Shown here piece after piece: positions 5,043 to 42,735 of a stretch of DNA of 44,828 nucleotides. Position 1 is the stretch's first letter, and each line of letters starts with the position of its first letter. The notes beneath the pieces are model-generated. The model saw only the letters and a program-made list of their open reading frames with translations. It was not told the origin of the DNA and made no database searches. The DNA comes from Deltaproteobacteria bacterium (GTDB lineage Bacteria; Desulfobacterota; Binatia; UTPRO1): contig VBKW01000189.1 of the NCBI GenBank assembly GCA_005879405.1, positions 1-44,828 of the forward strand. Direction: 5' to 3'. Both the position numbers and the translations under genes were made by a program.

Positions 5043-6228
5043 GGCGGCGCCGCGGACGATCGCGTTCTTTCCACCGCGGCTCGTCACCGGAGGGACGCAG
5101 CGTCACCTCCTCGAGGTCCTGAAGTTTCTCGACCGCACGCGCTTTCGGCCGCTCGTCATCAGCGCCAAGCGCGGCGGCGACCTCGGGCGCGAGATCGTCG
5201 CGCAGGGCGTCGAGCTCGTGCAGCTCGATCTCGGCGAGCGCGTGGTGAGCGCGGATTTCGTCCGCTGTGTGCGCGCGACGGCGGCGATCTTCCGTGCCCG
5301 CCGGGTCGACGTCGTGCAGTGCTTTCAGTGGCGGCCGGCGCTGATCGGGATTCTCGCGGCGCGGCTCGCGCGGCGCGGGCGCATCGTCGCGGGGCGGCGT
5401 AGCGCGCCCGTCGAGCGCGGCGCGCGCGGTCTGCTCGAGGACATCGTGGTACGGCTCGCCGATCGCGTCATCGTGAATGCCGAGGCGTTGCGGCCGGGCG
5501 GAGCGGCGGGCGCGCGCACCGACGTCGTTCCGAGCGGCGTCGACACCGACCGCTTTCGGCCGCGCCCGGAGGAGCGTGGCGCCGCGCGCCGCGCGCTCGC
5601 GCTGCCGGCGACGGCGCCGATCATCGGCACCGTCGGGCGTCTCGAGGCACGCAAAGGCACCGCGGTGCTCCTCGAGGCGGGCGCCAAGCTGGTGAAAAAA
5701 GGACTTTCCGAGCTGCACGTCGTGGTGGTAGGTGATGGGCCGCTTCGCGACGAGATCTTCGCGCTCGCCGCTCGACTCGGCATCGCCGAGCGCGTGCACA
5801 TGCTCGGTGATCGATCAGACATTCCGGAGATCCTGGCAGCGCTCGACGTCTTCGTGTTGCCCTCGCGGACCGAGGGCATGTCGAACGCATTATTGGAGGC
5901 GATGGCGACGGCCCTTCCAGTCGTCGCGACGGCGGTGGGGGGAAATCCCGAGGTCGTTTCCGCGGAGACCGTAGGCGTGCTCGTACCCCCTGATGATCCG
6001 ACGACCATCGCCGATGCAGTGGCGCGCCTCGTCGCGAACCCGACGCACGCGGCAGAGCTCGGGGCGGCCGCGCGCCGATCGGTCGCGGCGCGCTACGGCG
6101 CGGCGGCGATGGTGCGGCGGCTGGAAGCGATCTACGACGCGGTCGCGGGCGCGACGCCGCGCCCGGTCGTGTCTGCCGTTGCCCGCGGCGAGCGGGGCGA
6201 CGTGACGCGTCCGGAGGTGTGTCGCTGA
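5026..6228 (+). CDS. glycosyltransferase family 4 (GT-B)
   Basis: SRTEGMSNALLEAMATALPVVATAVGGNPEVV (E-x7-E region). N-terminus is IAFFPPRLVTGGTQRHLLE. The start is uncertain; the GTG at 5026 overlaps the upstream gene. Confidence 0.85.
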   Translation: MSSSSEAAPRTIAFFPPRLVTGGTQRHLLEVLKFLDRTRFRPLVISAKRGGDLGREIVAQGVELVQLDLGERVVSADFVRCVRATAAIFRARRVDVVQCFQWRPALIGILAARLARRGRIVAGRRSAPVERGARGLLEDIVVRLADRVIVNAEALRPGGAAGARTDVVPSGVDTDRFRPRPEERGAARRALALPATAPIIGTVGRLEARKGTAVLLEAGAKLVKKGLSELHVVVVGDGPLRDEIFALAARLGIAERVHMLGDRSDIPEILAALDVFVLPSRTEGMSNALLEAMATALPVVATAVGGNPEVVSAETVGVLVPPDDPTTIADAVARLVANPTHAAELGAAARRSVAARYGAAAMVRRLEAIYDAVAGATPRPVVSAVARGERGDVTRPEVCR

Positions 6229-7898
6229 TGGCGTCCGTCTCCCGCATGGTCGTCGTCGGTCTCGACGGCGCGACCTTCGACCTCATCAAGCCGTGGGCGG
6301 CAGAGGGCAAGCTGCCGACGTTCGCCCGCCTGCTCGCGGAGGGCGCGCACGCCGAGCTGCGCAGCACGCTGCCGGCGCTGACGCCGCCGGCGTGGACATC
6401 TGCGGCGACCGGCAAGAATCCCGGCAAGCACAACGTCTACAACTTCTACAAGGTCAGCGGTGGCGGCACCGGCAAGCTGCCGCTGACGCCCGCGGACCTG
6501 CGCAGCCGCCGTGTCTGGGACATCGCCAACGTGTACGGGAAGCGCGCCGGCGTCGTGCATCTCCCGCTGACGTATCCGCCCGAGCACCTCGACGGCTTCG
6601 TCGTCTCGGGCATCATGACGCCGAAGGGCGTGGAGGACTATACGTTCCCGCCGGAGCTGCGCGACGAGCTCCAGGCGCACGTCGACGGCTATCGGTTCGA
6701 CGTCGACGCCGACGCGCTGAAGGTCGGCGATCTGCGCGCCTTCGCCGAGGACGCCTTCGAGCTGCAGCGGATCCAAACTGCAGAGATGCTCTACCTCTTC
6801 GAGCACAAGCGGTGGGATCTCCTGTGGGTGATGTTCCACACGCTGGACAAGCTGCAGCACTTCTTCTGGCATCTCATGGATCCCACGCATCCCGCGCATC
6901 CCGGTGCGACGGAGTTCGCCGACGTCGTGCTGCGCTTCCACCAGCTCCTCGACGAGGCGCTCGCCGGCGTGCTCGCGCGGCTCGACGACGACACCGGTCT
7001 CCTGGTGATGTCGGATCACGGCTCATGCCGGCTCGAGTCGTACTTCCTGATCATGAACTGGCTCGAGGACACGGGGTTCTTGCGCATGAAGAACGCGGCG
7101 CGCTCACCGCTCAAGCGCGCGCTCGGCGGCATGGGCATCGAGGCGCGCGGCATCGTGCAGAGCCTCCGCCGCGCCGGACTCGGGTGGGTGCCGCGCCTCG
7201 TGCCGGGGCGGCTGAAGGCGCAGGTGCCACAGGCGCGGGCGTCGTTCGCCCGCATCGCGCCGCACGTCGACTGGTCGGGTACACGGGTCTATTGCCCGTC
7301 GGCGCCCGGCAGCGGGCTGCGCGTGAATCTGCGCGGGCGCGAGGCCGAGGGAATCGTCGCCCCGGAGGACTACGATCGTGTCTGCGAGGAGGTGCGGGCG
7401 CGGCTTCTCACGATCGTCGATCCGAAGACCGGCCGCCACGTCGTTCACGCCGTGCACCGACGCGAAGAGATCTACGCCGGTCCGTACGTCGACAACGGTG
7501 CCGACCTTCTCGTCGAGACGACGGATTCGTACTGTCTGATCGAAGGCATGGGCCCGGCGGCGATCGTGCCTGCGGGCCAAAACGATGGTGAGCGCACAGG
7601 CAACCATCGACGCGAGGGGATTTTTCTGCTCGCGGGCGCCGGGGCGCGTCGCGGCGTCGCGCTCCCGACGCTCGACATCTGCGACGTCGCGCCGACCTTG
7701 CTCTACCTGTTGGACGTGCCGGTGCAGCAGGACATGGACGGCGCCGTCGCTCAGGGGGCGATCGCGCCGGAGCTCCTCGCCGCGCGCGACGTGCGCACGG
7801 ATCAGCTCGCCGCGCCCGCCGAAGTCGCGGCGACGGAGATGAGCGACCAAGACCGGCGTGCCATCGAAGGCATGCTCGAGGGGCTCGGATACCTGTGA
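6228..7898 (+). CDS. alkaline-phosphatase-superfamily phosphohydrolase/phosphotransferase (COG3379-like, type I phosphodiesterase fold), paralog 1
   Basis: VVVGLDGATFD, STLPALTPPAWTSAATGKNPGKHNVYNF, VMSDHGS and GNHRREGIF are the metal/nucleophile motifs. No signal peptide. Ends ...DQDRRAIEGMLEGLGYL. ATG 6228 overlaps the upstream TGA (TGATG) and has GGAGG 10 nt upstream; the track ORF starts at GTG 6219. Confidence 0.8.
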   Translation: MASVSRMVVVGLDGATFDLIKPWAAEGKLPTFARLLAEGAHAELRSTLPALTPPAWTSAATGKNPGKHNVYNFYKVSGGGTGKLPLTPADLRSRRVWDIANVYGKRAGVVHLPLTYPPEHLDGFVVSGIMTPKGVEDYTFPPELRDELQAHVDGYRFDVDADALKVGDLRAFAEDAFELQRIQTAEMLYLFEHKRWDLLWVMFHTLDKLQHFFWHLMDPTHPAHPGATEFADVVLRFHQLLDEALAGVLARLDDDTGLLVMSDHGSCRLESYFLIMNWLEDTGFLRMKNAARSPLKRALGGMGIEARGIVQSLRRAGLGWVPRLVPGRLKAQVPQARASFARIAPHVDWSGTRVYCPSAPGSGLRVNLRGREAEGIVAPEDYDRVCEEVRARLLTIVDPKTGRHVVHAVHRREEIYAGPYVDNGADLLVETTDSYCLIEGMGPAAIVPAGQNDGERTGNHRREGIFLLAGAGARRGVALPTLDICDVAPTLLYLLDVPVQQDMDGAVAQGAIAPELLAARDVRTDQLAAPAEVAATEMSDQDRRAIEGMLEGLGYL

Positions 7899-10339
7899 TC
7901 GGAGCGCCGATCTTCGTGTACCACGACGTCGTCGCTGGTCCCGAGGCGCTCGCCGGGGTCGCGCCGGCGCATCGGCCGTACGTGCTGACGCGCGCCCAAC
8001 TCTCCGCGCACCTGGAGGCGCTCGCTTCGGCCGACCTGGGCGATGCGCGGCCGACGGCGAGCACCATCACCGAGCTGCTCGACGACCCGATCGACGGCCG
8101 ATTCGTGCTGTCGTTCGACGACGGTCACGAGAGCGCGTACTCGCGAATCTTGCCGCTGCTCGCCGAGCGTCGCTGGCGCGCGACGTTCTTCGTCGTCGCC
8201 GGCTGGATCGGCGGGCGCGAGGCGCTCAGCTGGGCGCAGCTGCGTGCGTTGGCAGATGCGGGCATGGAGATCGGCAGCCATTCGCTCACGCATCCGTTCG
8301 TGCACGAGCTCTCCGCGGCGGACATTCGCCGCGAGTTCGGCGAGTCCAAGCGCATGCTCGAGGATGGAATCGGGCGCGCCGTCACGGTGGCGTCGCTACC
8401 GCGCGGCAGCAACGCGCCCGGAACCGATCGGATCGTCGCCGAGCTCGGCTACCGCGCGTTCTGCACCAGCGAGCCCGGCCTCGTCGGCCGCGGCACGGAC
8501 CCGTTCGACGCATCGCCTCACGCTCGCCAGGCTGCGCTCCTCGTATGTCGTGAAGCGCTTCGCGAAGGGCCTGATCGGAGTCGAGCGCTGGCGTCGCGTC
8601 CGTGGCGCGGTGATCGCGAGAACCGGCGCCGGCGGCGCGATCGTGAACGCGGCGCAGGTGAACGGTCGGTGGGAGAGCAGGCGATGAAGGTCCTCTTGAT
8701 CGGTCTCGACGGCATGACCTTCGACGTCGCGCGCCCGCTCATGGACGCCGGCAAGATGCCGACCCTCGCCGCGCTCGAGCGCCGCGGCGTGTGCGCGACG
8801 CTGCTGTCGACGTATCCGCCGATCTCCGCTCCGGCGTGGGTGACGTTCCTGACGGGCAACAATCCGGGACGTCACGGAATCTTCAATTTTCAGAACCTCG
8901 ATCTGTCACGCTACTCGAGTTTCAGCGAGACGCTGGTGAACTCGAGCTATTTCCGCGGCAAGACCCTGCTCGATCACGCCGGGGCGGAGGGAAAACGCAT
9001 CCTCGCGTATCGGATTCCGCTCACGTATCCGGCATGGTCGATCAACGGGCTGCTCGTCTCCGGGCCGCCGACGCCGGATCGCAAGCGCGCCTACGCGATG
9101 CCGGCCGAGCGCGCCGCCGAGCTGCCGGAGATGACGTTGCTGTCGCACGACGAGCTCGCCCGCGCCAAGAAGGCGGGCGACATTGCCGCGATCGACGCCT
9201 GCAACGCCTACGAGTTGAAGGTGATGGACGAGGTCACGCGCCGCGCGATCGACGACGGCACCGACGTGATCGTCACCTTCACCGGCATTCCCGATGGCCT
9301 GCATCATTCCTTCTGGCACCTGCACGATTCGAGCTCACCGCTGCACGATGTGTCGGCATCGGCGCACGACAAGGACGTCATCCGGCGTTGGTACTGCGAG
9401 ATCGATCGCATGATCGGCGGCTGGCTCGCCGGGCTCGGCGACGAGTGGGCGGTGATCGTGCTCTCCGATCATGGCGGTGGTCCGGCGCCGACGCGCTACC
9501 TGAACGTCAACCACGTGCTCGCGCAGCACGGGTATCTGAAGCCGACGAGCGCCGCGCGCGCGCGAGTCGCGAGGCTGGTCAGCCGGCAGATGAACGCGCT
9601 GCGCCGCCGCGTGCCCGGCAAGGTGTGGCTGAAGAACCATCTCCCCGCCGCCCTGAAGTCGCAGGTGCGCCAGCTGCGCAACGGCACCGGCCGGATCGAC
9701 TGGAGCGCGACACGCGCCTACGCCGTGCCGATCTTCTTCCCGGTGACCGGCATCAACCTCAACGTCCGGGGACGGCAGCCGCAGGGCACCGTCGCGCCGG
9801 GTGCGGAGTACGAGCGCGTCCGGGCGGAGATCATGAGGCTCGCGGCCGAACTTCGGGATTCGGCGAGCGGCGCGCCGCTCTGTCGGCAGGTGCTGCGCAA
9901 GGAGGACGTCCTCGCCGGACCGCACCTCGACAACGTGCCGGACATCCTCCTCGTCACCGCCGACGGAATCGACGGCGGACACGACGTCGATCGGCTGCTC
10001 GCGGACGTGCCGCTCGACGCGCTTCGCAACGTCAGCGGCTCGCACGCGATGGAAGGCATTTTCTTCGCCGTCGGAACCCCGTTCCGCGCCGGCGTCCGCC
10101 TCGCGCCGGTCGGTCTCGACGACATGCTCCCGACGGCGCTCCACCTCGCGGGCGTCGCCATTCCGGAGGGGATCGACGGCGCCGTGCTTGCCGAGGCGCT
10201 CGCGCCCGAGTACGCGGCGGTGCACCCCGTGCAGACGACGGGTATGCGCGCGGGCGGCGGCGAAGACGGCGACGCGCTCTCCGCCGGTGAAGAGCACGAG
10301 ATGCGGAAGTTCCTCCAAGACCTCGGGTACATCGAGTGA
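7895..10339 (+). CDS. as encoded, one ORF joining a NodB polysaccharide deacetylase domain (N-terminal) to AlkP/COG3379 paralog 2 (C-terminal); probably two genes joined by a 1-nt frameshift near 8510
   Basis: N-terminal part: FDDGHESAYSRILPLLAERRWRATFFVVAGW...MEIGSHSLTHP. C-terminal part, from ATG 8684: MKVLLIGLDGMTFD, STYPPISAPAWVTFLTGNNPGRHGIFNF, LSDHGGG, GSHAMEGIF, ending ...EEHEMRKFLQDLGYIE. The linker is Arg-rich junk-like sequence (RGDRENRRRRRDRERGAGER). Confidence 0.75.
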   Translation: MIGAPIFVYHDVVAGPEALAGVAPAHRPYVLTRAQLSAHLEALASADLGDARPTASTITELLDDPIDGRFVLSFDDGHESAYSRILPLLAERRWRATFFVVAGWIGGREALSWAQLRALADAGMEIGSHSLTHPFVHELSAADIRREFGESKRMLEDGIGRAVTVASLPRGSNAPGTDRIVAELGYRAFCTSEPGLVGRGTDPFDASPHARQAALLVCREALREGPDRSRALASRPWRGDRENRRRRRDRERGAGERSVGEQAMKVLLIGLDGMTFDVARPLMDAGKMPTLAALERRGVCATLLSTYPPISAPAWVTFLTGNNPGRHGIFNFQNLDLSRYSSFSETLVNSSYFRGKTLLDHAGAEGKRILAYRIPLTYPAWSINGLLVSGPPTPDRKRAYAMPAERAAELPEMTLLSHDELARAKKAGDIAAIDACNAYELKVMDEVTRRAIDDGTDVIVTFTGIPDGLHHSFWHLHDSSSPLHDVSASAHDKDVIRRWYCEIDRMIGGWLAGLGDEWAVIVLSDHGGGPAPTRYLNVNHVLAQHGYLKPTSAARARVARLVSRQMNALRRRVPGKVWLKNHLPAALKSQVRQLRNGTGRIDWSATRAYAVPIFFPVTGINLNVRGRQPQGTVAPGAEYERVRAEIMRLAAELRDSASGAPLCRQVLRKEDVLAGPHLDNVPDILLVTADGIDGGHDVDRLLADVPLDALRNVSGSHAMEGIFFAVGTPFRAGVRLAPVGLDDMLPTALHLAGVAIPEGIDGAVLAEALAPEYAAVHPVQTTGMRAGGGEDGDALSAGEEHEMRKFLQDLGYIE

Positions 10340-10343
10340 GCCG

Positions 10344-11393: not shown

Positions 11394-11418
11394 TCGACCG
11401 GTACGGGAGCGTCCGCTG

Positions 11419-13380: not shown

Positions 13381-13386
13381 GGAGCC

Positions 13387-15279
13387 ATGAGCTTGCAGAG
13401 CCACGTCGGCGTTCCCGTGAACGCGCGCCCACTCGCAACGGCCAGCCCGCCCGCCGCGGCAAAGGTCGAATGGGAGCTCGTCACGGTCGGGGGCGCCACC
13501 CCGATCTGGCAGCGCGTGCTCTCGGTCATCGGGCTCGTGCTGCTATCGCCGCTGATTCTGCTCATCGGGCTCGCGACGAAATCGACGAGCCCGGGGCCGA
13601 TTCTCTACCGCGGTCGGCGCGTCGGTCGCGGTGGCAAGAACTTCACGATCTACAAGTTTCGCACGCTCGAAGTCGGCGCCGAGCAGAAGATCGGCGCGCG
13701 CCTGCTCGAGCACGGTGACGGACTGTACACGCGCATCGGCCGCTACTTGAAACGCGCCAAGCTGGACGAGATCCCGCAGCTGTTCAACGTCATTCGCGGC
13801 GAGATGAACCTCACGGGGCCGCGGCCGGTTCGACCGATTTTCCTCGAGACGTTCTGCCGCGAGATCCCCGGCTACATGCGCCGCTTCGCGGTCAACCCGG
13901 GCATGACGGGGCTCGCGCAGGTGCGCGGCGGCTACTTCACCCACCCGCGGGACAAGCTCCGCTACGATCTCCTCTACATCCGCAACCGCTCGTGGTGGCT
14001 GGACGTCCGTCTGGTGACCTTGACCTTCATCAAGGTGCTGAACCGGTGGGCGACGCTCGGGCTCGTGCTGACGTTGCTGTTCCTGTCCGCTGCGTTGCTT
14101 CCCGGAGTTTTCCACTATCCTTTCCAGCTCGACCTCGGCAGTTTCAAGCTGAGCCCGTTCGAGATGCTGGTCGCGGTGATGGCTGCATGGCTCGTGGTGC
14201 AGCGCTCGCCGCGTGACGAGCTCTGCGTCTACGACACCGCGGTCAACCGGCCGATGGGTGTCTTCGTCGGCTTCGCGGGCTTGGCGGCGCTCTTCTCTCC
14301 CGAGCCGACGGCGGCGCTGCAGGGCGTCTCGTACTACGTCGCGACCGGCTTCTCGCTGACGTTCCTGATCGTCAACGCGCGGCTCACGCAGCGCGAGGCG
14401 AATCTGGTCGCGAACGTCGTCGGGCTATCGGCGGTCTCGGTATGCCTGATCGGTCTCCTCCAGATCGGTCTCGACAACCAGCTCGGGGTGCACGACGCGC
14501 CGCGAATGTCGTCGACGCTCGGCAATCCCGTGCTGCTGGCGACGTACCTCGTCCTCGGACTGCCCTTCCTGCTGACGCAGCTGCTCCACAGCCGCTCGCG
14601 CGAGCAGCGCGACATCTGGGTGGGGTGCGCGACGATCGCGCTGATCGGCGTGTTCCTCACCCACACCCGCATGGGGCTCGTCGCCTTGGTCGTCACGTTG
14701 AGCGTATTCCTCTGGAAGACCTCGCATCGCTACATCGGCATCTGCGCGGTGGCGTTGATGATGGTGATGGGGGTCATGCTCGCGGGCCGGCAGATGCGCC
14801 TCTCGGTTCCCGAGGTGGCCGTGGAAGCCGCGCGGCGCGGGGAGATCGCGGAGCACGTGCTGTCGGCACCGCCCACCCAGCTGCTGCTCGGCGTCGGCAG
14901 CACGCGCCGGCTCGCGATGTCGCCGATTCCGGAGCAGGACGCGCGCTGGATCTCGACCAGCATGCACCTGACGCTCATCCGCCAGAACGGCATCGTCGGC
15001 TGGGCGCTGATGCTGTGGATCTTCACGGCGGCGCTGATCGCGCTCTACCGCGGGTACGGGCGCATCCACGATCCGCACATGCGCCGCATCGTGTGGGCGA
15101 TCTTCAGCTCGCTCGTCGGATTTCTCATCTCGATGACGGACGCCAACGTCTTCTTCAACGTCACGATCCAAATCTACGTCTGGGGTATGATCGGCGTCGG
15201 GATCGGGATCATCACCCACTTGAGCGGCCGCCGGCCGACGTTTCACGTCGTCTGGCGTTTCGGGGAGCACGGGGATTGA
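13387..15279 (+). CDS. fusion protein: bacterial sugar transferase (initiating polyprenyl-phosphate glycosyl-1-phosphate transferase) + Wzy_C/O-antigen-ligase-like polytopic domain
   Basis: N-terminal ~215 aa: SPGPILYRGRRVGRGGKNFTIYKFRTL, DEIPQLFNVIRGEMNLTGPRP, GMTGLAQV, DLLYIRNRSWWLDVRL. The C-terminal ~400 aa has about 10 TM segments, including FLTHTRMGLVALVVTLSVFLW. Confidence 0.8.
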   Translation: MSLQSHVGVPVNARPLATASPPAAAKVEWELVTVGGATPIWQRVLSVIGLVLLSPLILLIGLATKSTSPGPILYRGRRVGRGGKNFTIYKFRTLEVGAEQKIGARLLEHGDGLYTRIGRYLKRAKLDEIPQLFNVIRGEMNLTGPRPVRPIFLETFCREIPGYMRRFAVNPGMTGLAQVRGGYFTHPRDKLRYDLLYIRNRSWWLDVRLVTLTFIKVLNRWATLGLVLTLLFLSAALLPGVFHYPFQLDLGSFKLSPFEMLVAVMAAWLVVQRSPRDELCVYDTAVNRPMGVFVGFAGLAALFSPEPTAALQGVSYYVATGFSLTFLIVNARLTQREANLVANVVGLSAVSVCLIGLLQIGLDNQLGVHDAPRMSSTLGNPVLLATYLVLGLPFLLTQLLHSRSREQRDIWVGCATIALIGVFLTHTRMGLVALVVTLSVFLWKTSHRYIGICAVALMMVMGVMLAGRQMRLSVPEVAVEAARRGEIAEHVLSAPPTQLLLGVGSTRRLAMSPIPEQDARWISTSMHLTLIRQNGIVGWALMLWIFTAALIALYRGYGRIHDPHMRRIVWAIFSSLVGFLISMTDANVFFNVTIQIYVWGMIGVGIGIITHLSGRRPTFHVVWRFGEHGD

Positions 15280-17324
15280 GCGTTTCCAGAACCGGGCAGG
15301 GGCTCCTACGTAACGCCCTCGTCGGTCTCGTCGCGGGAGTCGCGGCGGGTGCCGCGTGGTGGCTCGTCGAGTCGACGGCGAACTGGGCATTCGGCGGCGT
15401 CGTGACGGGCGCGGTCGCGCGCATGATCCTCGGCCTCGATCTCCTCGTCGCGGGCAGCGCCGGTCTCGCGCTCGGCGTCGCGTTGACGTTCGTCCCGGGC
15501 GGCGCGAGCGCGCCGGCGCTCGCGCTCGGCCTCGCGATGGTCTACGGGCTGATCCGCATCTTCGAGCCTCCCGGGATGGGGGCCGAAGCGCTGTTCGTCG
15601 TCTGCGCCATCGCGAGCGCCGCGCTCGGCGTCCGGCTCGTCGGCCAGGACCGGCGTGGCCCACTCGCATTCGTGCACGTGACGCTGCTCGCGACCGCGTT
15701 CACGGCCCTCGGCAAGACGGTCATCGGGGAGGCGCAGAGCGACTATTTCAGCAAGACGGAGCCGAGCGCTGCGGCGCTCACGCTTCTCCTGGTAGCGCTG
15801 CCACTCGCCGCGATCGTCGTCGATCGTGTCGTCGCGTTCGCGCTCCGACGGCACGTCTGGCGCTTCGGTGCCGAGCTCGCGCTCGGCGCGGCGGCGGCGG
15901 TGCTGTGGAACCACTCGAGCCCGCCGCTGTGGACGGCACCGATCGACAATCCCCGTCTCACCGCGCCGCCGCCGGCGGTGGGGGTGCCGGACGTGCTCTT
16001 GGTCGTGCTCGACACCACGCGCGCCGACCACATGTCGACGTACGGCTACGCGCGCGAGACCTCGCCGAACCTGACGGCGCTCGCGAGCGACGCGCTCAAC
16101 TTCACGCAAGCACGCTCGCCGGCGCAATGGACCGTGCCGGGACACGCCTCGATCTTCACGGGCATGTATCCCACGCGTCACGGCGCCCACTACGCCGGCG
16201 AATGGGCGGCGGGACCGAAGATCTACGGACGCAAGCGCGTGCTGCCGCTGTCGGACGAGCGGACGACGCTCGCCGAGGTGCTGCGCGACCGCGGCTATGT
16301 CACCGGCGGTTTCGCCGCGAATTTCGCGAACCTGGATCGTGGCTTCGGCATGGCGCAAGGCTTCGGGCACTACGAGGATCATCCGGGGCTGCTCTTCCGG
16401 CCGGTGCCGCACGTGGTGCGCTTCGTCCAGCGGTTCCGACCCGCGTTCTGTAAGAAGCCGTTTCGCAGCGCAGAGGAGATCAACACCGCTGCGCTCGATT
16501 GGCTCGACGGGGCGCCCGCCGGTCGTCCCTTCTTCGTGTTCCTCAATTACCTCGAGCCTCATCATTGGCTCGCCGCTCCGCCGTACGACCTGTGGAGCCG
16601 TGACCTGCCGCATGCGCGCCAGCTCGCGCTGAAGGGGCTGTTCACCCACAAGGTGCCGGTGCATCTCACCGACGAGGAGCGGACGTTCGTCGCCGCGAAC
16701 TACGACGGCCAGATCCTCGCCATGGACGCGGCGCTCGGCGAGCTGATCGCGGCGCTGAAGGCCCGGGGCCGCTACGAGAATACGTTGATCATCGTCACCG
16801 CCGACCATGGCGAGCTCCTCGGTGAGCACGAGATCGTGGGTCACGGCGGTCGAATGATGTACGAGGGCCTGCTCCACATTCCGATGGTCGTGAAGCTGCC
16901 AGGCGCCGACCACCCGAAAGGCACGATCGACGCGCGCGTGCAGCTCGTCGACGTCCTTCCGACCGTGCTCACGACGGTCGGCGCGCCGTTGCCCGACGGC
17001 GTGCAGGGCGAGCCCGTGCAGCACGTCACGCACGAGACGATCGCGGAGGAGCACATCAATCCCGAGTTCGTCGCCCAGTTCGGCGCAGTCTACGATCGCG
17101 CGCTCCGCGTCTACTACGATGGTGCGTACAAGCTGATCAGCACCTCGCGCGGCGAGCGCCTGCTCTTCGACCTCGGACAGGACCCGGGCGAGGCCGAGAA
17201 CCTGGCGAGCCGCGAGCCGGAGCGGGTCGCGGACATGGAGCGGCGGCTCGACACCGTGATGAGCCACATGGACCTGCCGACCGGCGGCGGCACCAAGATC
17301 GCCGCGTCATCGGAGCCGCGATGA
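15276..17324 (+). CDS. membrane-anchored sulfatase-fold hydrolase/transferase (LtaS/OpgB/EptA-like architecture)
   Basis: About 5 N-terminal TM helices, then PDVLLVVLDTTRADHMS and ARSPAQWTVPGHASIFTGMYPTRHG, where Thr/His occupy the usual C/S-x-P-x-R positions, then TADHGELLGEH. The start is uncertain: TTG 15276 overlaps the upstream TGA, and ATG 15421 is the alternative. Confidence 0.75.
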   Translation: MSVSRTGQGLLRNALVGLVAGVAAGAAWWLVESTANWAFGGVVTGAVARMILGLDLLVAGSAGLALGVALTFVPGGASAPALALGLAMVYGLIRIFEPPGMGAEALFVVCAIASAALGVRLVGQDRRGPLAFVHVTLLATAFTALGKTVIGEAQSDYFSKTEPSAAALTLLLVALPLAAIVVDRVVAFALRRHVWRFGAELALGAAAAVLWNHSSPPLWTAPIDNPRLTAPPPAVGVPDVLLVVLDTTRADHMSTYGYARETSPNLTALASDALNFTQARSPAQWTVPGHASIFTGMYPTRHGAHYAGEWAAGPKIYGRKRVLPLSDERTTLAEVLRDRGYVTGGFAANFANLDRGFGMAQGFGHYEDHPGLLFRPVPHVVRFVQRFRPAFCKKPFRSAEEINTAALDWLDGAPAGRPFFVFLNYLEPHHWLAAPPYDLWSRDLPHARQLALKGLFTHKVPVHLTDEERTFVAANYDGQILAMDAALGELIAALKARGRYENTLIIVTADHGELLGEHEIVGHGGRMMYEGLLHIPMVVKLPGADHPKGTIDARVQLVDVLPTVLTTVGAPLPDGVQGEPVQHVTHETIAEEHINPEFVAQFGAVYDRALRVYYDGAYKLISTSRGERLLFDLGQDPGEAENLASREPERVADMERRLDTVMSHMDLPTGGGTKIAASSEPR

Positions 17325-18361: not shown

Positions 18362-18383
18362 AAGCGCGAGGAGGATCTCCCTG

Positions 18384-19685: not shown

Positions 19686-19711
19686 CCACACCACCAACGG
19701 AACGCTAGATC

Positions 19712-19729: not shown

Positions 19730-19779
19730 CGTGCACTCACCCCCGCGGCCGAGCACGACCGGCCCCACTTGGAGGCTCC

Positions 19780-20541: not shown

Positions 20542-20577
20542 GCGCGTCCCTCCTCGGAGCGCGCGGGCGGGGCTGAG

Positions 20578-21758: not shown

Positions 21759-21795
21759 GCCGCGTCCGGTCGCGACGCGTGACGACGAGGAGGAG

Positions 21796-21888
21796 ATGCG
21801 CGGTACGCCACCCCGTCTCTTCGTTGTCGTATTGCTGGCATGGGCGGCCGTCGTCTACGGCCGCTACCTGCTCGGATACCTGCGCTGA
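21796..21888 (+). CDS. unannotated 30-codon single-TM micro-ORF coupled to the GT-C gene
   Basis: GAGGAGGAG ends 1 nt before ATG 21796. Encodes MRGTPPRLFVVVLLAWAAVVYGRYLLGYLR. Its TGA shares a base with ATG 21888 (TGATG). Third codon positions are G/C-rich. Too short for the ORF track. Confidence 0.4.
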   Translation: MRGTPPRLFVVVLLAWAAVVYGRYLLGYLR

Positions 21889-25138: not shown

Positions 25139-25258
25139 CGCGGCGAAATCCGACGTTGCGGCGGTGGACGAAACCATTTATCGTCGCGATAGCTCCGCAG
25201 AAACCGCATCGGGTGACGCGACGGGAATCCTCTTCCGTCGAATCCATCAATCGGAGGA

Positions 25259-26659
25259 TTGTTTCCGTTGACGCAGAAGGTCCTGGTCGTCGGCCTCGAC
25301 TCGGCGCCGCCGCGATTGCTGTTCGACGTCTATCGACGCGAGATGCCGACGTTGACGCGGCTCATCGACCGCGGCGCGCACGGCCGCCTGCAGAGCACGA
25401 ACCCGCCGATCACGGTGCCGGCGTGGACGTCGATGATGTCGAGCAAGGATCCGGGCCAGCTCGGGTTCTACGGCTTCCGCAATCGGAAAGACCACTCGTA
25501 CGACGGCTACGCGTTCGCGAACTCCGCGCTCGTCCGCGAACGGCGCCTGTGGGACCTCCTCGGCGAGGCCGGCAAGCGCTCGATCGTGCTCGGCGTGCCG
25601 CAGACGTATCCGCCGCGGCCGCTGAACGGCGAGATGGTGACCTGCTTCCTCACGCCGTCGACGAAGGCGCAGTACACGTATCCGGAGACGTTGAAGGCCG
25701 AGGTCGAGCGCGTCGCTGACGGCTACGTCCTCGACGTCGACGACTTCCGCACGCCGCACAAGAAGGAGTTGCTCGAGCGCGTCTACGCGAAGACGCGCAA
25801 GCACTGGGCGGTCGCGAAGCACATGATGGCGAGCCGCGAGTGGGATTACTTCATGCTGGTCGAGATGGGCCTCGACCGCATCCACCACGGGTTCTGGAGC
25901 TACATGGACCCCGAGCACCGGAAGTACGAGCGCGGCAACGAGTTCGAGCAGGCGATCCGCGACTACTATCGCTACCTCGACGGCGAGCTGGCGAGCTTGC
26001 TCGCGCTGGCGCCGCAGGACGCGCTGGTTCTCGTCGTCTCCGACCACGGCTCGAAGCGAATGGAGGGCGGCATCTGCTTCAACGAGTGGCTGATCCGCGA
26101 AGGCTATCTGACGCTCAAAGATCCGCCGCGGACGCCGACGCCGATCGGCAAGGTCGCGATCGACTGGTCGCGCACGAAGGCGTGGGGCGACGGCGGCTAC
26201 TACGGGCGCTGCTTCATGAACGTGAAGGGCCGCGAGCCCGAAGGTATCGTGGACCCGAAGGACTACGAGCGGGTGCGCAACGAGTTGATCGCCGGGATCG
26301 AGGCGATCGTCGACGACCGCGGCCGCTCGATCGGCTCGAAAGCCTATCGCCCCGAGGACATTTATCGGTCGGTGAACGGCGTCGCGCCCGATCTCATCGT
26401 CTATTTCGGTGATCTCGATTGGCGCTCGGTCGGCGCCGTCGGCATGGACTCGATCTACACGTTCGAGAACGACACCGGGCCCGACGAGGCGAACCACGAC
26501 TGGTACGGCATCTTCGTGATGTCGTCGCCGAATGGCTCGGTGCCGCTCCAAGGGAACCTCGGCGACGTCTCGATCTACGACGTCGCGCCGACGCTGCTCA
26601 CGTACTTCGGCTTGCCGGTCCCGGCGGACATGATCGGCCGCTCGCTCGTGAGGAACTGA
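25259..26659 (+). CDS. AlkP-superfamily (COG3379-like) paralog 3, tail-less
   Basis: VLVVGLDSAPP, STNPPITVPAWTSMMSSKDPGQLGFYGF, VVSDHGSKRM, ANHDWYGIF. Ends ...PVPADMIGRSLVRN with no linker/LGY tail. TTG 25268 is better spaced from GGAGGA than TTG 25259. Confidence 0.8.
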   Translation: MFPLTQKVLVVGLDSAPPRLLFDVYRREMPTLTRLIDRGAHGRLQSTNPPITVPAWTSMMSSKDPGQLGFYGFRNRKDHSYDGYAFANSALVRERRLWDLLGEAGKRSIVLGVPQTYPPRPLNGEMVTCFLTPSTKAQYTYPETLKAEVERVADGYVLDVDDFRTPHKKELLERVYAKTRKHWAVAKHMMASREWDYFMLVEMGLDRIHHGFWSYMDPEHRKYERGNEFEQAIRDYYRYLDGELASLLALAPQDALVLVVSDHGSKRMEGGICFNEWLIREGYLTLKDPPRTPTPIGKVAIDWSRTKAWGDGGYYGRCFMNVKGREPEGIVDPKDYERVRNELIAGIEAIVDDRGRSIGSKAYRPEDIYRSVNGVAPDLIVYFGDLDWRSVGAVGMDSIYTFENDTGPDEANHDWYGIFVMSSPNGSVPLQGNLGDVSIYDVAPTLLTYFGLPVPADMIGRSLVRN

Positions 26660-26669
26660 GGAGGCTCGC

Positions 26670-27629
26670 GTGCGGCACGTTGCGGTCGACATCGTCACCG
26701 GCTTCCTCGGCAGCGGCAAGACGACGCTGCTCAGCCACGTGCTCGCGCACGGCCTGAAGGGCAAACCCGTCGCGGTCGTGATGAACGAGATCGGCGAGGT
26801 CGGAATCGACGGCCAGGTCGTGACCGGCCTCAACTACGTCGAGAAGATGGTCGAGCTCTCGAGCGGCTGCATCTGCTGCTCGATCGACGAGTACCGCTTC
26901 GACCTCGCGATCCAGGAGCTGATCGAGACCGTCCACCCGCACCTCATCATCATCGAGTCGACGGGGCTCGCCGATCCGGAGCCCCTCACGTACCGCGTGA
27001 AGGCCGCAGGTCTGAAACTCGATGCGGTGATCACGGTCGTCGACGCCGCCAACGTCGAGCGCTTCGTCAAGGAGACCGAGGTCGCGACGGCGCAGATCGA
27101 GGCGGCGGACTTCCTGGTCGTCAACAAGATCGACCTCGTCGCGACGGGCGACGTCGCGCGCGTCGAACGCCGGCTGCGCAAGCTGAACCCGCGTGCGCTG
27201 CAGTTCCGCAGCGTCCGCGGCGCCATCGACTCCGAGGTGCTGTTCGCGACCGGCGTCGCGACGTACCGCGAGCGCGCCCGCGAGGCGCGCGCGACGTCCG
27301 ATCACCTGCACCAGGACGCCTTCGGCTCGTTCCTCTACCGCAGCGACGTCGAGCTCGATCAGCCGGCGTTCGAGCACGTGCTCGAGCGTCTGCCCGACGA
27401 CGTGATTCGCGCCAAGGGCATTGTGCGTCTCGTCGGACGCGATTGGCATTGTCTCTTCAACGTCACCTGCGGTCGCGTGGAGCTCGGTTGGCTGAAGCTC
27501 CCGGAGGATCGCACGGAAAACCAGGCCGTCTTCATCGGCCGCAATCTCGACCGGCATCGCGCCGGCATCCTCGATGCGCTCCGCGGCTCCGAGCGCGCGC
27601 AGGCACAACGACAGGGAGAAGTTCGATGA
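26670..27629 (+). CDS. COG0523 (CobW/YjiA/ZigA-type) G3E-family GTPase metallochaperone
   Basis: GFLGSGKTTLL (P-loop), SSGCICCS (CxCC metal motif), ESTGLADP, VNKIDL, plus a C-terminal CobW_C-like domain. Confidence 0.9.
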   Translation: MRHVAVDIVTGFLGSGKTTLLSHVLAHGLKGKPVAVVMNEIGEVGIDGQVVTGLNYVEKMVELSSGCICCSIDEYRFDLAIQELIETVHPHLIIIESTGLADPEPLTYRVKAAGLKLDAVITVVDAANVERFVKETEVATAQIEAADFLVVNKIDLVATGDVARVERRLRKLNPRALQFRSVRGAIDSEVLFATGVATYRERAREARATSDHLHQDAFGSFLYRSDVELDQPAFEHVLERLPDDVIRAKGIVRLVGRDWHCLFNVTCGRVELGWLKLPEDRTENQAVFIGRNLDRHRAGILDALRGSERAQAQRQGEVR

Positions 27630-27754
27630 CGGCGACCCCCAAACGGCCGGAAGATCCGGCCGAGCCACCGCCCAACCCCGACGCGACCGAGGGCTACTCG
27701 CCCGAGGAAGAAGAGGAAGTCCAGAAGCGCCTCGAGGATTTGGGCTACATCTGA
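27626..27754 (+). CDS. unannotated 42-codon ORF encoding a free Pro/acidic linker plus LGYI tail
   Basis: ATG 27626 overlaps the CobW stop (ATGA) and GGGAGAA lies upstream. Encodes MTATPKRPEDPAEPPPNPDATEGYSPEEEEEVQKRLEDLGYI. It is the in-frame 3' part of track ORF 27443..27754. Confidence 0.55.
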   Translation: MTATPKRPEDPAEPPPNPDATEGYSPEEEEEVQKRLEDLGYI

Positions 27755-27880
27755 GCACCACGCTCGCGTATCCTCCCCGGAGAACGCGCGCGGATCACAT
27801 CAGGCGCGGGCTTCGTCCCGCTCCCCACTCGCAGCCCGTCCCCACGGCGGGCGTCACCTTCCCACTCTCGGAGGACGTCC

Positions 27881-29176: not shown

Positions 29177-29188
29177 GCAGGGGGGAGC

Positions 29189-29455
29189 ATGGGCGCGGAC
29201 AATACGTTGCGACGGCGGATCCTCGGCGAGTTTCGCAAGGCGCACGAGGCGAACAAGGAAGCGCCGTTCCTGCACACCCGGCAGCATCTGACGGAGCGGC
29301 TCGGCGAGACCTACGAAGTGCTCGCGCCGCAGATGCAGTTCCTCGAGCAGAACCGCTATCTGCATTGGAAGGCGTCGGACGTCTTCAAGATCTCGCCCAA
29401 AGGTTTGCGCGCGACCCACACCCCGGAGGACCTCGCGCGCGAGTTCCCCGACTGA
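29189..29455 (+). CDS. small hypothetical protein, winged-helix-like
   Basis: GGGGGAG lies upstream of the ATG. 88 aa. The helix-helix-helix-wing pattern is LHTRQHLTERLGETYEVLAPQMQFLEQNRYLHWKASDVFKISPKGL. I recognise no family. Confidence 0.45.
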   Translation: MGADNTLRRRILGEFRKAHEANKEAPFLHTRQHLTERLGETYEVLAPQMQFLEQNRYLHWKASDVFKISPKGLRATHTPEDLAREFPD

Positions 29456-29496
29456 CGTGCCGCGCGCGCTCGGCTACGTGAACTAATCGGCGCTGC

Positions 29497-31203
29497 GTGA
29501 TCGCGATCGTCGGCCTCGATGGAGCGACGTGGGATCTCGCCCGCCCGCTCATGGACGCCGGCGAGATGCCGACGCTGCGGCGCCTCGTCGACGCCGGCGC
29601 GTCCGGGGTCCTGCGGTCGACGACGCCGCCCGTGACGTTTCCCGCGTGGTCGTCGTTCATGACCGGCGCCAACCCCGGCAAGCACGGCATCTTCGACTTC
29701 ACACGCCGGGTGCCCGGCACGTACGAGCTGGCGTTCGTCACGAGCCGCGACCGCCGCCTGCCGACGATGTGGCGGCTGCTATCCGACGCCGGACGGCGCG
29801 TCGCCGTCCTCGGCGTGCCGACCACGTACCCGCCGGAGCCGGTGAACGGCATCATGGTCGGCGGCTTCGACAGCCCGGTCACGACCGGGATCGACGGCTC
29901 GTTCGTCCACCCGCGCGCGCTCTACGACGAGATGCGGGCGGCGGTCGGGCCGTACACGATCACCGACTTCCAGGAGCTGCGCATCGGACCTGGCTGGCAC
30001 GACGCGGCGCTGCCGAAGATCCTCGCCGCGGTCGATCGTAAGCGCGACCTGGGGCGCTGGGTCCTCGCCCGCGAGGCGTGGGACGTCTTCATGGTGCTCT
30101 TCGGCGAGGCCGACACCGCGAGCCACCACTTCTGGATGTTCGCGGATCCGCGCTCGCCGCGCTTCGACGGCGCGCGCGCTTCCCGTCACCGCAATGCGCT
30201 CCGCGACGTCTACCGCCGCCTGGATGCGGCGTTGGCGGCGATCGTCGGCGCGCTGCCAGGCGACGCGACCGTGCTCGTCGCCTCCGATCACGGGTTCGGC
30301 GGCGCCGGCACGACCGTCGTCCACTTGAACCGCTGGCTCGCCGAGCGCGGCCTGCTGCGCTTTCACGCGGGGGCGCGCGCGGTTCCGGCGCGCATCGTTC
30401 GCGGCGCACGCGGCCTGGCGCTGCGCGCGCTGCCGCGCCGCGCCCAGGAGCGCGCCGTCCGGCGGCGCGGCCGCGGCCTCGCGCGCCGGCTCGAAGCGTG
30501 GTCACGGTTCGGCGCGATCGATCTGGCACGGACGGCCGTCTTCTCCGAGGAGCTCAACTACGCGCCGAGCATCTGGCTGAACGTGCGCGGCCGCGATCCG
30601 CTCGGCACCGTCGCGCCCGGGCGCGATTACGAGGCGCTGATCGAACGCCTGCGCGCCGATCTCCTCGCGTGGCGGCATCCGGTGAGCGGCGCGCGCATTG
30701 TCGCCGCCGTCCATCGCCGCGACGAGATCTACACCGGCGGCTGCGTGGACGGCGCCCCCGACCTCCTCCTCGAGCCCGCGCTCGAGAACGGCTACTCGTA
30801 CGTGTGGCTGCCGAGCACCGGCGACGAGCGCGCGAGCCTGCGCCCGCTCGCACCGGTGGAGTACGTCGCCGGGAAAGGCGGTGGCATGAACGGCAGCCAT
30901 CGCGCGGACGGGCTCTGGGCGCTTGCGGGCCCGGCGGTGCCGCGAGGGATGCGCGCCGCGGCCTCGATCACCGACGTCGCGCCGACCGTGCTGCATCTCG
31001 CCGGCCTTCCGGTGCCGTCGTGGATGGACGGGCGGGTGATTCCCGGCGTGGCCGGCGAGATCGTCACTGCGGCTGCCGAGAGCGGCAACACACCGACGCT
31101 CGCGACTTTCACCGGCGAGCCGTCTGCACGCACTGCCGGCGAGGAGGACGAGCTCTGGCGGCGGCTCGTCGCGCTCGGCTACCTCGAGGGAGCGGAGCGG
31201 TGA
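29497..31203 (+). CDS. AlkP-superfamily (COG3379-like) paralog 4
   Basis: IAIVGLDGATWD, STTPPVTFPAWSSFMTGANPGKHGIFDF, VASDHGFGG, GSHRADGLW. Ends ...GEEDELWRRLVALGYLEGAER. Confidence 0.8.
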   Translation: MIAIVGLDGATWDLARPLMDAGEMPTLRRLVDAGASGVLRSTTPPVTFPAWSSFMTGANPGKHGIFDFTRRVPGTYELAFVTSRDRRLPTMWRLLSDAGRRVAVLGVPTTYPPEPVNGIMVGGFDSPVTTGIDGSFVHPRALYDEMRAAVGPYTITDFQELRIGPGWHDAALPKILAAVDRKRDLGRWVLAREAWDVFMVLFGEADTASHHFWMFADPRSPRFDGARASRHRNALRDVYRRLDAALAAIVGALPGDATVLVASDHGFGGAGTTVVHLNRWLAERGLLRFHAGARAVPARIVRGARGLALRALPRRAQERAVRRRGRGLARRLEAWSRFGAIDLARTAVFSEELNYAPSIWLNVRGRDPLGTVAPGRDYEALIERLRADLLAWRHPVSGARIVAAVHRRDEIYTGGCVDGAPDLLLEPALENGYSYVWLPSTGDERASLRPLAPVEYVAGKGGGMNGSHRADGLWALAGPAVPRGMRAAASITDVAPTVLHLAGLPVPSWMDGRVIPGVAGEIVTAAAESGNTPTLATFTGEPSARTAGEEDELWRRLVALGYLEGAER

Positions 31204-42729: not shown

Positions 42730-42735
42730 CTTCTC

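Follow-up and report, generated by a model that had tools for sequence, protein, structure and literature searches.

Paralogous AlkP-fold enzymes of a polysaccharide operon, a portable C-terminal tail and a possible link to sulfate activation

The described proteins closest to the enzymes reported here are Xanthomonas NPP and ENPP1-7 (PF01663), which are secreted and conserve an Asn in the pocket. Other known systems resemble single parts of the locus. EptA/MCR, LtaS and OpgB combine a TM bundle with a sulfatase-fold domain that has Thr in place of formylglycine, while NodPQ-NodH, CysDNC-Stf0 and RaxPQ-RaxST join an ATP sulfurylase and an APS kinase to a PAPS consumer. Short conserved C-terminal peptides carried by several proteins of one pathway are seen in the SoxY GGCGG arm, LysW, Hsp70 EEVD and HbYX. 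We know of no PAPS-dependent sulfotransferase in the AlkP superfamily, and sulfuryl transfer by NPP-type sites is known to us solely as weak promiscuity. In the literature we found no described function for COG3379 proteins, and nothing relevant on AlkP-superfamily sulfotransfer with PAPS. In the low-salt N-glycan cluster of Hfx. volcanii, a gene annotated as 'AlkP-core domain protein' adjoins agl7 (PMC3892788; supplement of PMC10869688). Here agl7 is required for glycan sulfation, and deletion of HVO_2047 (annotated AlkP-core) left the sulfated glycan unchanged (PMC3892788).

The window, that is the whole stretch of 44,828 nucleotides analysed, carries a polysaccharide operon, delimited by gene-by-gene family calls as a single-strand run at 447-32432. 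All features given below lie on the forward strand. The run places all four AlkP paralogues (P1 to P4) within one polysaccharide operon, as a preliminary description had stated. Its gene order is Wza, Wzz, ATPase, Wzy_C, GT4, P1, deacetylase, P2, deacetylase, AsnB-like, PGT, TM-sulfatase, GT2, radical SAM, GT2, YdjM, PMT_2-like, Wzx, P3, CobW, microprotein, NDP-sugar dehydrogenase, orf92, P4 and GT4. The last gene, a GT4 glycosyltransferase (31212-32432), was identified by codon-position GC content, its translation and an NCBIfam stp3-like match. The frame of the first polysaccharide deacetylase (PF01522, 7895-8690) is disturbed and continues into P2, so that both read as one ORF at 7895-10339. 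Since about 62 nt are absent from this junction relative to locus L004 (76-85% identical by blastn), the joint ORF is probably a frame artefact, and we rejected a true deacetylase-P2 fusion. Markers of XrtA/PEP-CTERM EPS loci scored below cut-off (AsnB-like 592 versus 817, EpsB_2 185 versus 393 and stp3 87 versus 442 bits), and no exosortase was found in the window. The window ORFs scanned gave no Pfam match to PAPS-dependent sulfotransferases (Sulfotransfer_1/2/3, Stf0), and the microprotein and orf92 had no Pfam match. The AlkP family had been described as unusual for such loci, which did not hold up: across many phyla it recurs beside genes for GT4, GT2, Wzx, Wzy_C and Wzz, and polysaccharide loci repeatedly include COG3379 members as accessories.

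P1 (556 aa, 6228-7898), P2 (551 aa, 8684-10339), P3 (463 aa, 25268-26659) and P4 (568 aa, 29497-31203) matched PF01663 (Phosphodiest) with 131, 118, 150 and 141 bits, respectively, against a gathering cut-off of 23 bits. All four fall in the COG3379 branch and none in a different fold; AF2 and Foldseek agree with the AlkP/NPP fold first proposed from motifs. The AF2 model of P1 had a pLDDT of 89.5 and a second AlkP model 84.8. Xac NPP was the best Foldseek match (E 5e-18, TM 0.65 normalised on the target), with Xac NPP and ENPPs at E ~1e-17, and a single-sequence search of P3 against the PDB gave no match. We recovered the core motifs quoted earlier, namely GLDG (which reads GLDS in P3), S-T-x-P-x-[TS]-x-P-A-W, SDHG and N/S-H..G. 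Catalytic residues are conserved in all four proteins on alignment: the metal ligands D13, D207/H211, D263/H264 and H460 are invariant (alignments A1 and A2), as are their equivalents in the short form, to which P3 belongs (alignments A3 and A5). T52 (Ser in P2), which we take to be the nucleophile, lines up with Thr in the segment P-S-F-T-N-P of PhnA (phosphonoacetate hydrolase). PhnA was the best sequence-profile match in the PDB (E 4e-12), with the nucleophile segment and DHG aligned; the match, however, covers about 100 N-terminal residues plus DHG, NCBIfam scores reach 24-28 bits versus a cut-off of 408, and there are no phosphonate genes nearby.

P1-P4 thus share fold, six metal ligands and Thr nucleophile with Xanthomonas NPP and the ENPPs, but identity is only 12-16% and P1-P4 have about 170 extra residues. 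The position of the pocket Asn, which contacts a phosphoryl oxygen, holds N in P1 and P2, G in P3 and D in P4. Unlike the secreted enzymes, the family is found in polysaccharide or sulfate-activation operons, P1, P2 and P4 bear a C-terminal tail, and P1-P4 are cytoplasmic. In-frame stops lie 0-15 codons before the first beta-strand and make an N-terminal extension impossible, which leaves no space for a signal peptide, in agreement with the original prediction. Judged by sequence identity (27-34% among P1-P4 versus 70-90% to their own orthologues elsewhere, 69-71% for P4), the four are ancient paralogues. Orthologues of P1 (86% identical) and P2 (85%) occur in L004, another of P2 in L001 (75%), and those of P4 in L083 and L088, where the GT4 gene is always next. 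The P1 start ATG overlaps the stop codon of the preceding GT4 gene by one base. P1, P2 and P4, the long forms, each contain a basic insertion of about 60 residues, which P3 does not have.

Some further details of the first reading required correction. The ORF at 25259-26659 is real, but P3 starts better at TTG 25268, 10 nt after GGAGG, which gives the 463 aa of its homologues. An LGY tail had been attributed to all four proteins; it is present in P1 (...DRRAIEGMLEGLGYL, ~7836-7895), P2 (...EMRKFLQDLGYIE) and P4 (...ELWRRLVALGYLEGAER), whereas P3 ends in ...GRSLVRN and its tail is a separate ORF. This ORF (27626-27754) encodes a microprotein of 42 aa, MTATPKRPEDPAEPPPNPDATEGYSPEEEEEVQKRLEDLGYI; it overlaps the stop codon of CobW (ATGA) and has a Shine-Dalgarno site, gggaga. 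Twelve orthologues share the invariant pattern Y..EE.E..KRLE.LGY; gene callers annotated it in L086 and L087, and eight representatives were present in the 1.84e9 proteins searched. Natural fusions of P3 with the tail also exist (P0229, P0238). Between P3 and the microprotein lies a COG0523 (CobW/ZigA/YjiA-like) GTPase (26670-27629; PF02492, PF07683 and NCBIfam matches), which is likely a metal chaperone for P3 and is retained between short AlkP and microprotein in window-type loci. P3 is 55-90% identical across phyla and differs in the loop after the nucleophile, as first noticed; the earlier suggestion of a functionally distinct subfamily is supported.

The tail consists of an acidic run, I/V, R-L-x-x-L-G-Y and one to two residues before the C-terminus. 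We scored it as an acidic stretch followed by I/V-x-x-R-L-x-x-L-G-Y-hydrophobic, at most two residues from the end; P1 and P2 have this form, and P4 carries the motif but has eight residues past the Tyr (LGYLEGAER), beyond that distance. In a logo of 192 unique tails, G-Y is invariant near the end, the flanks are acidic and another Tyr is conserved at -17. In 80 genome loci, 115 of the 142 AlkP ORFs bear the tail, as do all of the 120 best long-form matches listed and 118 of 120 haloarchaeal sulfatase-family proteins among the best matches listed. In bacteria and archaea the tail is carried by long AlkPs, by "sulfatase" proteins of the Thr type, by APS kinases and by small RHH-like proteins, and it also stands free as a microprotein. 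The tail is not a chance pattern: among 3055 non-AlkP ORFs of the 80 related loci it occurs at the C-terminus almost solely in APS kinases and sulfatase-family proteins. It is a modular element found in split and fused forms. It is an N-capped amphipathic helix ending in L-G-Y-hydrophobic, which we infer to dock on an AlkP-fold domain, its own or a partner's; AF2 monomers give the tail helix a pLDDT of only 64-80, consistent with docking or not. Tail sequences are orthogroup-specific, which suggests that each co-evolves with its own domain.

Neither Pfam, NCBIfam nor the literature yielded a family model or a paper describing the tail, and none of the NCBIfam models for the four AlkP ORFs covers it. 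It has no sequence relation to the SoxY, LysW, Hsp70 or HbYX peptides. A role as secretion or sorting signal was set aside because carriers include cytoplasmic APS kinase and RHH-like proteins, as was HbYX-type proteasome docking because the Tyr position is not fixed (one to two residues from the end) and because lineages that lack proteasomes have the tail too. A role as BY-kinase substrate leaves the sat/cysC linkage unaccounted for and was likewise set aside. Phmmer likeness to PG_binding_1 and to 'GYSPEQQELI..L..G' repeats is confined to one N-capped helix and so is probably convergent, and we set aside a peptidoglycan-binding domain.

Genes around P3 orthologues were identified by labelled-seed tblastn, as longest-ORF calling is unfit for high-GC loci (antisense ORFs). 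ATP sulfurylase and/or APS kinase genes adjoin P3 orthologues in 24 of 61 non-window-type loci. Of 53 loci, 15 have an APS kinase as the gene downstream of P3, and 13 of these kinases are tailed. The sulfurylases and kinases near P3 pass NCBIfam cut-offs, P3 orthologues are operonic with ATP sulfurylase and with tail-bearing APS kinases, and L081 carries a sulfate ABC transporter. In this, P3 loci resemble NodPQ-NodH, CysDNC-Stf0 and RaxPQ-RaxST, with P3 in third position, but neither P3 nor any long form has the sulfotransferase fold. No sulfotransferase or PAPS-reductase family was found among the families present in at least two of 28 sat/cysC-linked loci. No ATP sulfurylase or APS kinase was found in the window or near the P3 orthologues of the 16 window-type loci, and around most single-copy long forms (Chloroflexota, Planctomycetota) neither a short form nor sulfate genes lie within 10 kb.

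The membrane-anchored sulfatase-fold protein of the first description (15276-17324) proved real, with a PF00884 domain and an N-terminal TM bundle. It bears no tail and has W-T-V-P-G-H where the formylglycine motif C/S-x-P-x-R would stand; tail-bearing relatives have W-T-x-P-x-[HF] or N-T-L-S-S-H instead. In architecture it resembles EptA/MCR, LtaS and OpgB, but EptA, LtaS and OpgB-type NCBIfam scores (20-48 bits) are far below the cut-offs of 500-1250, and its predicted topology is ambiguous. The gene also occurs in window-type loci L083, L089 and L099, and relatives in L066 carry the cytoplasm-associated tail. The radical SAM gene (18231-19685) was rejected as a sulfatase maturase: its score is 38 bits where 349 would be needed, and a Cys/Ser target motif is missing from the sulfatase-fold protein. 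In Halorubrum and Halobacteriaceae, glycosylation clusters carry COG3379 and tail-bearing sulfatase genes, similar to the agl7/HVO_2047 cluster, whose product contains a sulfated hexose and where an AlkP-core gene (by annotation only) stands beside a sulfation gene and HVO_2047 deletion had no visible effect. No match named Agl7 was among the best 120 of the tail-bearing sulfatase family with a Halorubrum query.

We tentatively favour, at somewhat below even odds, the view that P1-P4 work in the cytoplasm as tail-docked modifiers of the AlkP fold, for which a connection to APS/PAPS (sulfation) is likelier than one to phospho-substituents. Since the tail links APS kinase to the AlkP enzyme set, the transferred group would most likely be derived from APS/PAPS. 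These cytoplasmic two-metal enzymes with a Thr/Ser nucleophile would form a two-tier system. P3 would be the conserved short core enzyme, served by the COG0523 metal chaperone, given its tail in trans by the microprotein and handling the common nucleotide donor. P1, P2 and P4, divergent long enzymes with their own tails, would act as position-specific sulfation modifiers of the nascent repeat unit, their basic insertion being a candidate contact for a membrane or lipid-linked substrate. In other genomes the enzyme set may have APS kinase, sulfatase-family enzymes of the Thr type and RHH-like regulators tethered to it by this tail. Any AlkP sulfation role is a matter of working like a sulfotransferase, not of membership in that family. 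The two-zinc Thr-nucleophile NPP centre, fully kept here, is suited to phosphoryl or nucleotidyl transfer, which speaks against sulfation. Also against it are the lack of ATP sulfurylase and APS kinase in window-type loci, the unchanged glycan of the HVO_2047 deletion, the modest pLDDT of the tail helix and the single-copy long forms with no sulfate genes close by. The AlkPs and the membrane sulfatase-fold enzyme might instead perform the phosphoester chemistry first proposed, on polymer or carrier (installing or trimming phosphoglycerol, phosphoethanolamine or similar substituents, or hydrolysing NDP-sugars or polyprenyl-PP intermediates); the tail would then be a helix for structure or oligomerisation, with no relation to sulfate. 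We regard this as doubtful. In its favour, nucleotide pyrophosphatases/phosphodiesterases and phosphonoacetate hydrolase are nearest among solved structures, a Thr nucleophile motif is found in the membrane PF00884 protein together with weak matches to EptA, MCR and LtaS models, and window-type loci lie apart from sulfate-activation genes. But phosphoester chemistry leaves unaccounted for both the same tail on APS kinase and the ATP sulfurylase, APS kinase and sulfate transporter beside P3 orthologues, and the known AlkP-superfamily phospho-substituent transferases are extracytoplasmic with lipid donors, unlike P1-P4.

P3 could also act on small molecules. Just as often as sulfate-activation genes, an HddA-like heptose kinase and a GmhA-like isomerase follow P3 orthologues, which points to sugar-phosphate metabolism and against sulfation: the HddA-like GHMP kinase occurs in 15 loci, in 10 of 53 as the downstream gene, and the SIS isomerase is present in seven. 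A sugar-phosphate phosphatase or phosphomutase for a precursor, for example a GmhB-like heptose-1,7-bisphosphate phosphatase, with separate and unrelated roles for the long forms, would fit the very high conservation of P3, the COG3379 annotation as 'phosphohydrolase/phosphomutase' and the lack of a nucleotidyltransferase or HAD phosphatase among recurrent families of P3 loci. This is nevertheless unlikely: neither HddA nor GmhA is encoded in the window, ATP sulfurylase and APS kinase genes stand in the same operons, and the tail link to APS kinase is not accounted for. NPP enzymes cleave nucleotide pyrophosphate bonds, and P3, highly conserved, is operonic and translationally coupled with sat and cysC; it might therefore hydrolyse nucleotide by-products of sulfation or assimilation by other proteins, as a pAp, PAPS or APS phosphatase/pyrophosphatase, a CysQ analogue or a pull on the sulfurylase reaction. 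We find this quite unlikely, given a separate pAp-phosphatase-like PHP-type gene beside P3 in three loci and three long paralogues, a tail system and a microprotein that it does not explain. Very unlikely, finally, is that the tail is a covalent carrier arm, whose C-terminal Tyr the short AlkP would load from APS/PAPS (sulfo-, phospho- or adenylyl-), with long AlkPs and Thr-type 'sulfatases' delivering from their own tail or the microprotein to sugar hydroxyls. AlkP-superfamily enzymes do accept aryl esters of phosphate and of sulfate, the invariant G-Y one to two residues from the end has acidic flanks and a conserved Tyr at -17, the free acidic microprotein of 40-50 aa resembles carrier proteins, and the conservation of P3 would match two conserved substrates, nucleotide and tail. 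Tail-bearing RHH-like regulators and APS kinase fit docking better, however, and the orthogroup-specific tails suggest co-evolution of each with its own domain. If a carrier arm did operate, these would be the first AlkP-superfamily sulfotransferases and a carrier-peptide glycan sulfation common to bacteria and archaea.

To our knowledge, few of the enzymes that sulfate microbial exopolysaccharides or archaeal N-glycans, or otherwise add charge to them, have been identified. Thousands of COG3379 proteins are encoded in soil, sediment, anammox, Chloroflexota, Acidobacteriota, Binatia and haloarchaeal genomes. For these, the vague annotation "AlkP family protein" gives way to a system with distinct parts: the conserved core enzyme, paralogues that would be acceptor-specific, the portable docking-like tail, the microprotein as a subunit and a likely metal chaperone. 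A concrete link to sulfate activation comes in addition. If the link to sulfation is true, it would provide candidate polymer-sulfation genes for granular sludge, biofilms and haloarchaeal S-layers, and a split or fused short linear motif would organise a prokaryotic metabolic complex.

The four AlkP-fold paralogues (COG3379) of the window, P1 (6228-7898), P2 (8684-10339), P3 (25268-26659) and P4 (29497-31203), all matched PF01663 at 118-150 bits (cut-off 23), and the core motifs quoted for them in the preliminary description were present. An AlphaFold2 model of P1 (mean pLDDT 89.5, pTM 0.90) matched Xanthomonas NPP and ENPPs in Foldseek with E ~1e-17 at 12-16% identity, and the AlkP/NPP-type assignment was upheld by both profile and structure. 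Aligning the four paralogues, and separately 32 sequences of the family, revealed that the metal ligands D13, D207, H211, D263, H264 and H460 are invariant and that the Thr/Ser at position 52 is retained (Ser in P2, Thr otherwise). In a PDB profile search, T52 aligned with the Thr of P-S-F-T-N-P that we take to be the nucleophile of phosphonoacetate hydrolase, and S-D-H-G aligned with A-D-H-G of that enzyme. The NPP Asn that contacts a phosphoryl oxygen is N in P1 and P2; at this position P4 has D and P3 has G. None of the four ORFs leaves room for a signal peptide, as had been claimed. All four proteins are cytoplasmic and combine an NPP fold with a two-metal/Thr centre.

Codon-position G+C content (the window has ~68% G+C) and Pfam scans placed these genes in a single long plus-strand polysaccharide operon, 447 to ~32432. 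It begins with genes for a Wza-like exporter, a Wzz/GNVR protein, a P-loop ATPase, a Wzy_C protein and a GT4, followed by P1, a deacetylase, P2 and another deacetylase. An AsnB-like amidotransferase, an initiating phosphoglycosyltransferase and a membrane-anchored sulfatase-fold protein come next, then a GT2, a radical-SAM/SPASM protein, a second GT2, YdjM, a PMT_2-like protein and a Wzx flippase. The operon ends with P3, a COG0523 GTPase, a 42-aa ORF, an NDP-sugar dehydrogenase, a 92-aa ORF (orf92), P4 and a GT4. P2 shares a reading frame with the polysaccharide deacetylase before it (7895-8690, +), the frame running through an Arg-rich stretch into P2, solely because ~62 nt that L004, a close relative of this locus, possesses are absent here; the deacetylase may represent a pseudogene, a recent fusion or an error in the assembly.

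Several other features were recorded. The last GT4 (31212-32432, +) is hidden within a long ORF (30078-32432) that overlaps P4 out of frame, and the pair of long AlkP then GT4 is conserved in other loci. orf92 (29177-29455, +) has no family match; its place in window-type loci is conserved, after the NDP-sugar dehydrogenase and ahead of the AlkP or sulfatase gene that comes next. The radical-SAM/SPASM protein (18231-19685, +) is conserved beside the membrane sulfatase-fold gene and a GT2; as an anaerobic sulfatase maturase it scored far under the cut-off, and its neighbour carries no Cys/Ser target motif. Downstream, genes for a PdxA-like dehydrogenase, a cyclase-family protein and a four-carbon acid sugar kinase (SBD_N/NBD_C) at 32413-35427 (+) probably form an acid-sugar catabolic module with no relation to the operon. 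The region 37282-44475 holds a GAF-histidine kinase (-), an ABC-2 exporter pair (+) and SCO1 with cytochrome oxidase subunit III/IV genes (-).

P1-P4 share 27-34% identity among themselves, and for each of them separate orthologues with 70-91% identity occur in other assemblies (P1 and P2 in L004 and L001, P3 in L083, L088, L089 and L102, P4 in L083 and L088). Of the two origins that had been left to be separated, recent duplication and recruitment, these identities speak against the former: the four are ancient, separately maintained paralogues. They fall into two architectural classes. The long forms P1, P2 and P4 are set apart from the short P3 by a ~60-residue insertion (288-348 in P1), which is basic, of low pLDDT and nearly invariant at W320, P326, K330 and P334, and by a C-terminal tail, an acidic run followed by RLxxLGY. 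The most likely start of P3 is TTG 25268, giving 463 aa, the length of its homologues, and P3 lacks the LGY tail that had been ascribed to all four. P3-type proteins are far more conserved, with 55-90% identity over Binatia, NC10, 'Deltaproteobacteria' and Blastocatellia.

A free copy of this tail is encoded shortly downstream of P3. The 42-aa ORF (27626-27754, +) is a microprotein whose ATG overlaps the stop of the COG0523 gene (ATGA), with a gggaga Shine-Dalgarno site 7 nt upstream. It recurs in at least 12 related loci, with Y..EE.E..KRLE.LGY invariant; across 12 orthologues, two of them already called by independent gene callers, Y24, E28, E29, E31, K34, R35, L36, E37, L39, G40 and Y41 are invariant while the N-terminal halves drift. 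In window-type loci the COG0523 (CobW/ZigA/YjiA-like) GTPase gene (26670-27629, +) always separates the short AlkP from the microprotein; its product probably serves the two-metal site as a metallochaperone.

The tail is portable. It ends all 120 best database matches of P1 and 115/142 AlkP ORFs in the best 80 loci of a family scan. A logo of 192 unique tails, counted from the Tyr (0), showed Y/L/F at -17, S/T at -16, acidic residues from -15 to -10, I/V/L at -9, R at -6 (78%), L at -5 and -2, G at -1 and L/I/V/M at +1, with just 1-2 residues after the Tyr in 178 tails. The same tail occurs on APS kinases that score above the NCBIfam cut-off, where it extends ~20 residues past the profile, and on PF00884 proteins in which Thr replaces the formylglycine Cys; 118 of the 120 best haloarchaeal 'sulfatases' carry it. 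It was also found on ~95-aa proteins (L126, L133, L166), as free microproteins of 40-51 aa, and on small RHH/CopG-like proteins (weak Pfam match, four homologous sequences) encoded immediately before operons of ATP sulfurylase and short AlkP (L131 203-430, L141 1-198, L145 1786-2004, L162 1847-2122), which may be regulators joined to the enzyme via the tail. In the natural fusions P0229 and P0238, a P3-type enzyme carries the tail itself (C-terminus ...GSRTYSAEDEEEVRRRLEDLGYI). So the tail missing from P3 is supplied in cis, by a microprotein, or by an adjacent APS kinase or sulfatase-family protein. This Rosetta-stone pattern of split and fused forms argues that the tail would work physically with the AlkP-fold domain. 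Outside the core motif, the conserved residues differ by orthogroup (AIEGMLEGLGYL for P1, EMRKFLQDLGYIE for P2, ELWRRLVALGYLE for P4), which suggests that each tail may co-evolve with its own partner surface. AlphaFold2 monomer models predicted a tail helix at a pLDDT of only 64-80.

Two further arrangements were noted. An APS kinase in L081 (6047-6787) carries a tail-like motif twice, as …RLEALGYM… and as …RLRDLGYLE, with an RHH-like segment between them, and proteins P0367-P0370 (690-780 aa) contain 3-5 internal repeats of an HTH-like unit then a tail-like 'GYSPEQQELIRQxLExxGLF'.

We scanned one genome per species and obtained at least 591 loci, of which the best 80 were analysed. These come from Chloroflexota, Planctomycetota (including Brocadia), Acidobacteriota, Omnitrophota and Thermodesulfobacteriota, and among archaea from Halobacteria and Geothermarchaeales; 35 of them, like the window itself, have 2-5 AlkP ORFs within 10 kb. 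The commonest neighbours were GT4 (28/80 loci), Wzx flippase (18/80), two GT2 clusters (17/80 and 13/80), LPG_synthase_TM (11/80), sulfatase-family and DegT (7/80 each), epimerase and APS kinase (6/80 each), and Wzz/tyrosine-kinase and Wzy_C (5/80 each), making the family a recurrent accessory of polysaccharide/glycosylation loci. A glycosyltransferase cluster on one Halorubrum contig includes a long AlkP right beside a sulfatase-family gene, both of them tail-bearing, and on a Halobacteriaceae contig a COG3379 gene is flanked by rhamnose-synthesis genes and a flippase. In Hfx. volcanii, HVO_2047, annotated as an 'AlkP-core domain protein', directly adjoins agl7, a gene required for glycan sulfation (PMC3892788; supplement of PMC10869688); its deletion had no visible effect (PMC3892788).

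The short form is linked to sulfate activation. Among 80 P3-type loci from a metagenome scan, 16 resembled the window, with flippase, P3, COG0523, microprotein, NDP-sugar dehydrogenase, orf92, in some a tail-bearing sulfatase, and a tail-bearing long AlkP. Elsewhere, ATP sulfurylase and/or APS kinase lay beside P3 in 24/61 loci; APS kinase was the downstream gene in 15/53 (13 with tail) and ATP sulfurylase the upstream gene in 9/52. The L081 operon begins with a tail-bearing APS kinase, ATP sulfurylase (both above curated NCBIfam cut-offs) and an ATGA-coupled P3-type enzyme, and continues with thioredoxin, a member of the sulfatase family and the sulfate transporter CysTWA. In three loci there is also a PHP protein, which matched 3',5'-nucleoside bisphosphate (pAp) phosphatase best. 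No sulfotransferase/PAPS-reductase family recurred among 106 unlabelled neighbours in 28 loci of the sat/cysC type.

We propose, with moderate confidence, that the tail is a candidate docking helix for an AlkP-fold domain and would bring long enzymes, APS kinase, sulfatase-fold enzymes and regulators together with the core enzyme. More tentatively, APS/PAPS could be the source of a transferred group, P3, metallated by the COG0523 GTPase, might handle the common nucleotide, and the long paralogues might be position-specific modifiers of the lipid-linked repeat unit, acting at the membrane via their basic insertion. The main rival is the phosphoryl or nucleotidyl chemistry of the preliminary description, which is favoured by the type of active site and by the window-type loci, which have no sulfate genes. 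P3 could alternatively be a pAp/PAPS hydrolase, or a sugar-bisphosphate phosphatase or mutase. An HddA-like heptose-7-phosphate kinase is often encoded in the same operons (15 loci: L109, L111, L118, L122, L124, L125, L127, L129, L139, L142, L143, L155-L157, L160; downstream gene in 10/53), immediately 3' of the short AlkP or of its sat/cysC genes and often accompanied by a GmhA-like isomerase (7 loci); no nucleotidyltransferase was among the recurrent neighbour families. We cannot reconcile these heptose genes with a pure sulfation role. For the tail, the alternative to a docking helix is a covalent Tyr carrier arm.

The superfamily of these enzymes is already known, and the COG is named but uncharacterised: literature searches on the COG3379 AlkP family found no paper, and sources call its members only 'alkaline phosphatase family protein' or 'predicted AlkP superfamily phosphohydrolase/phosphomutase'. 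Neither Pfam/NCBIfam models nor the literature searched yielded an entry for a tail module common to APS kinases, Thr-type sulfatase-family and RHH-like proteins, for the microprotein subunit or the COG0523 pairing, or for the connection of the short form to sulfate activation.
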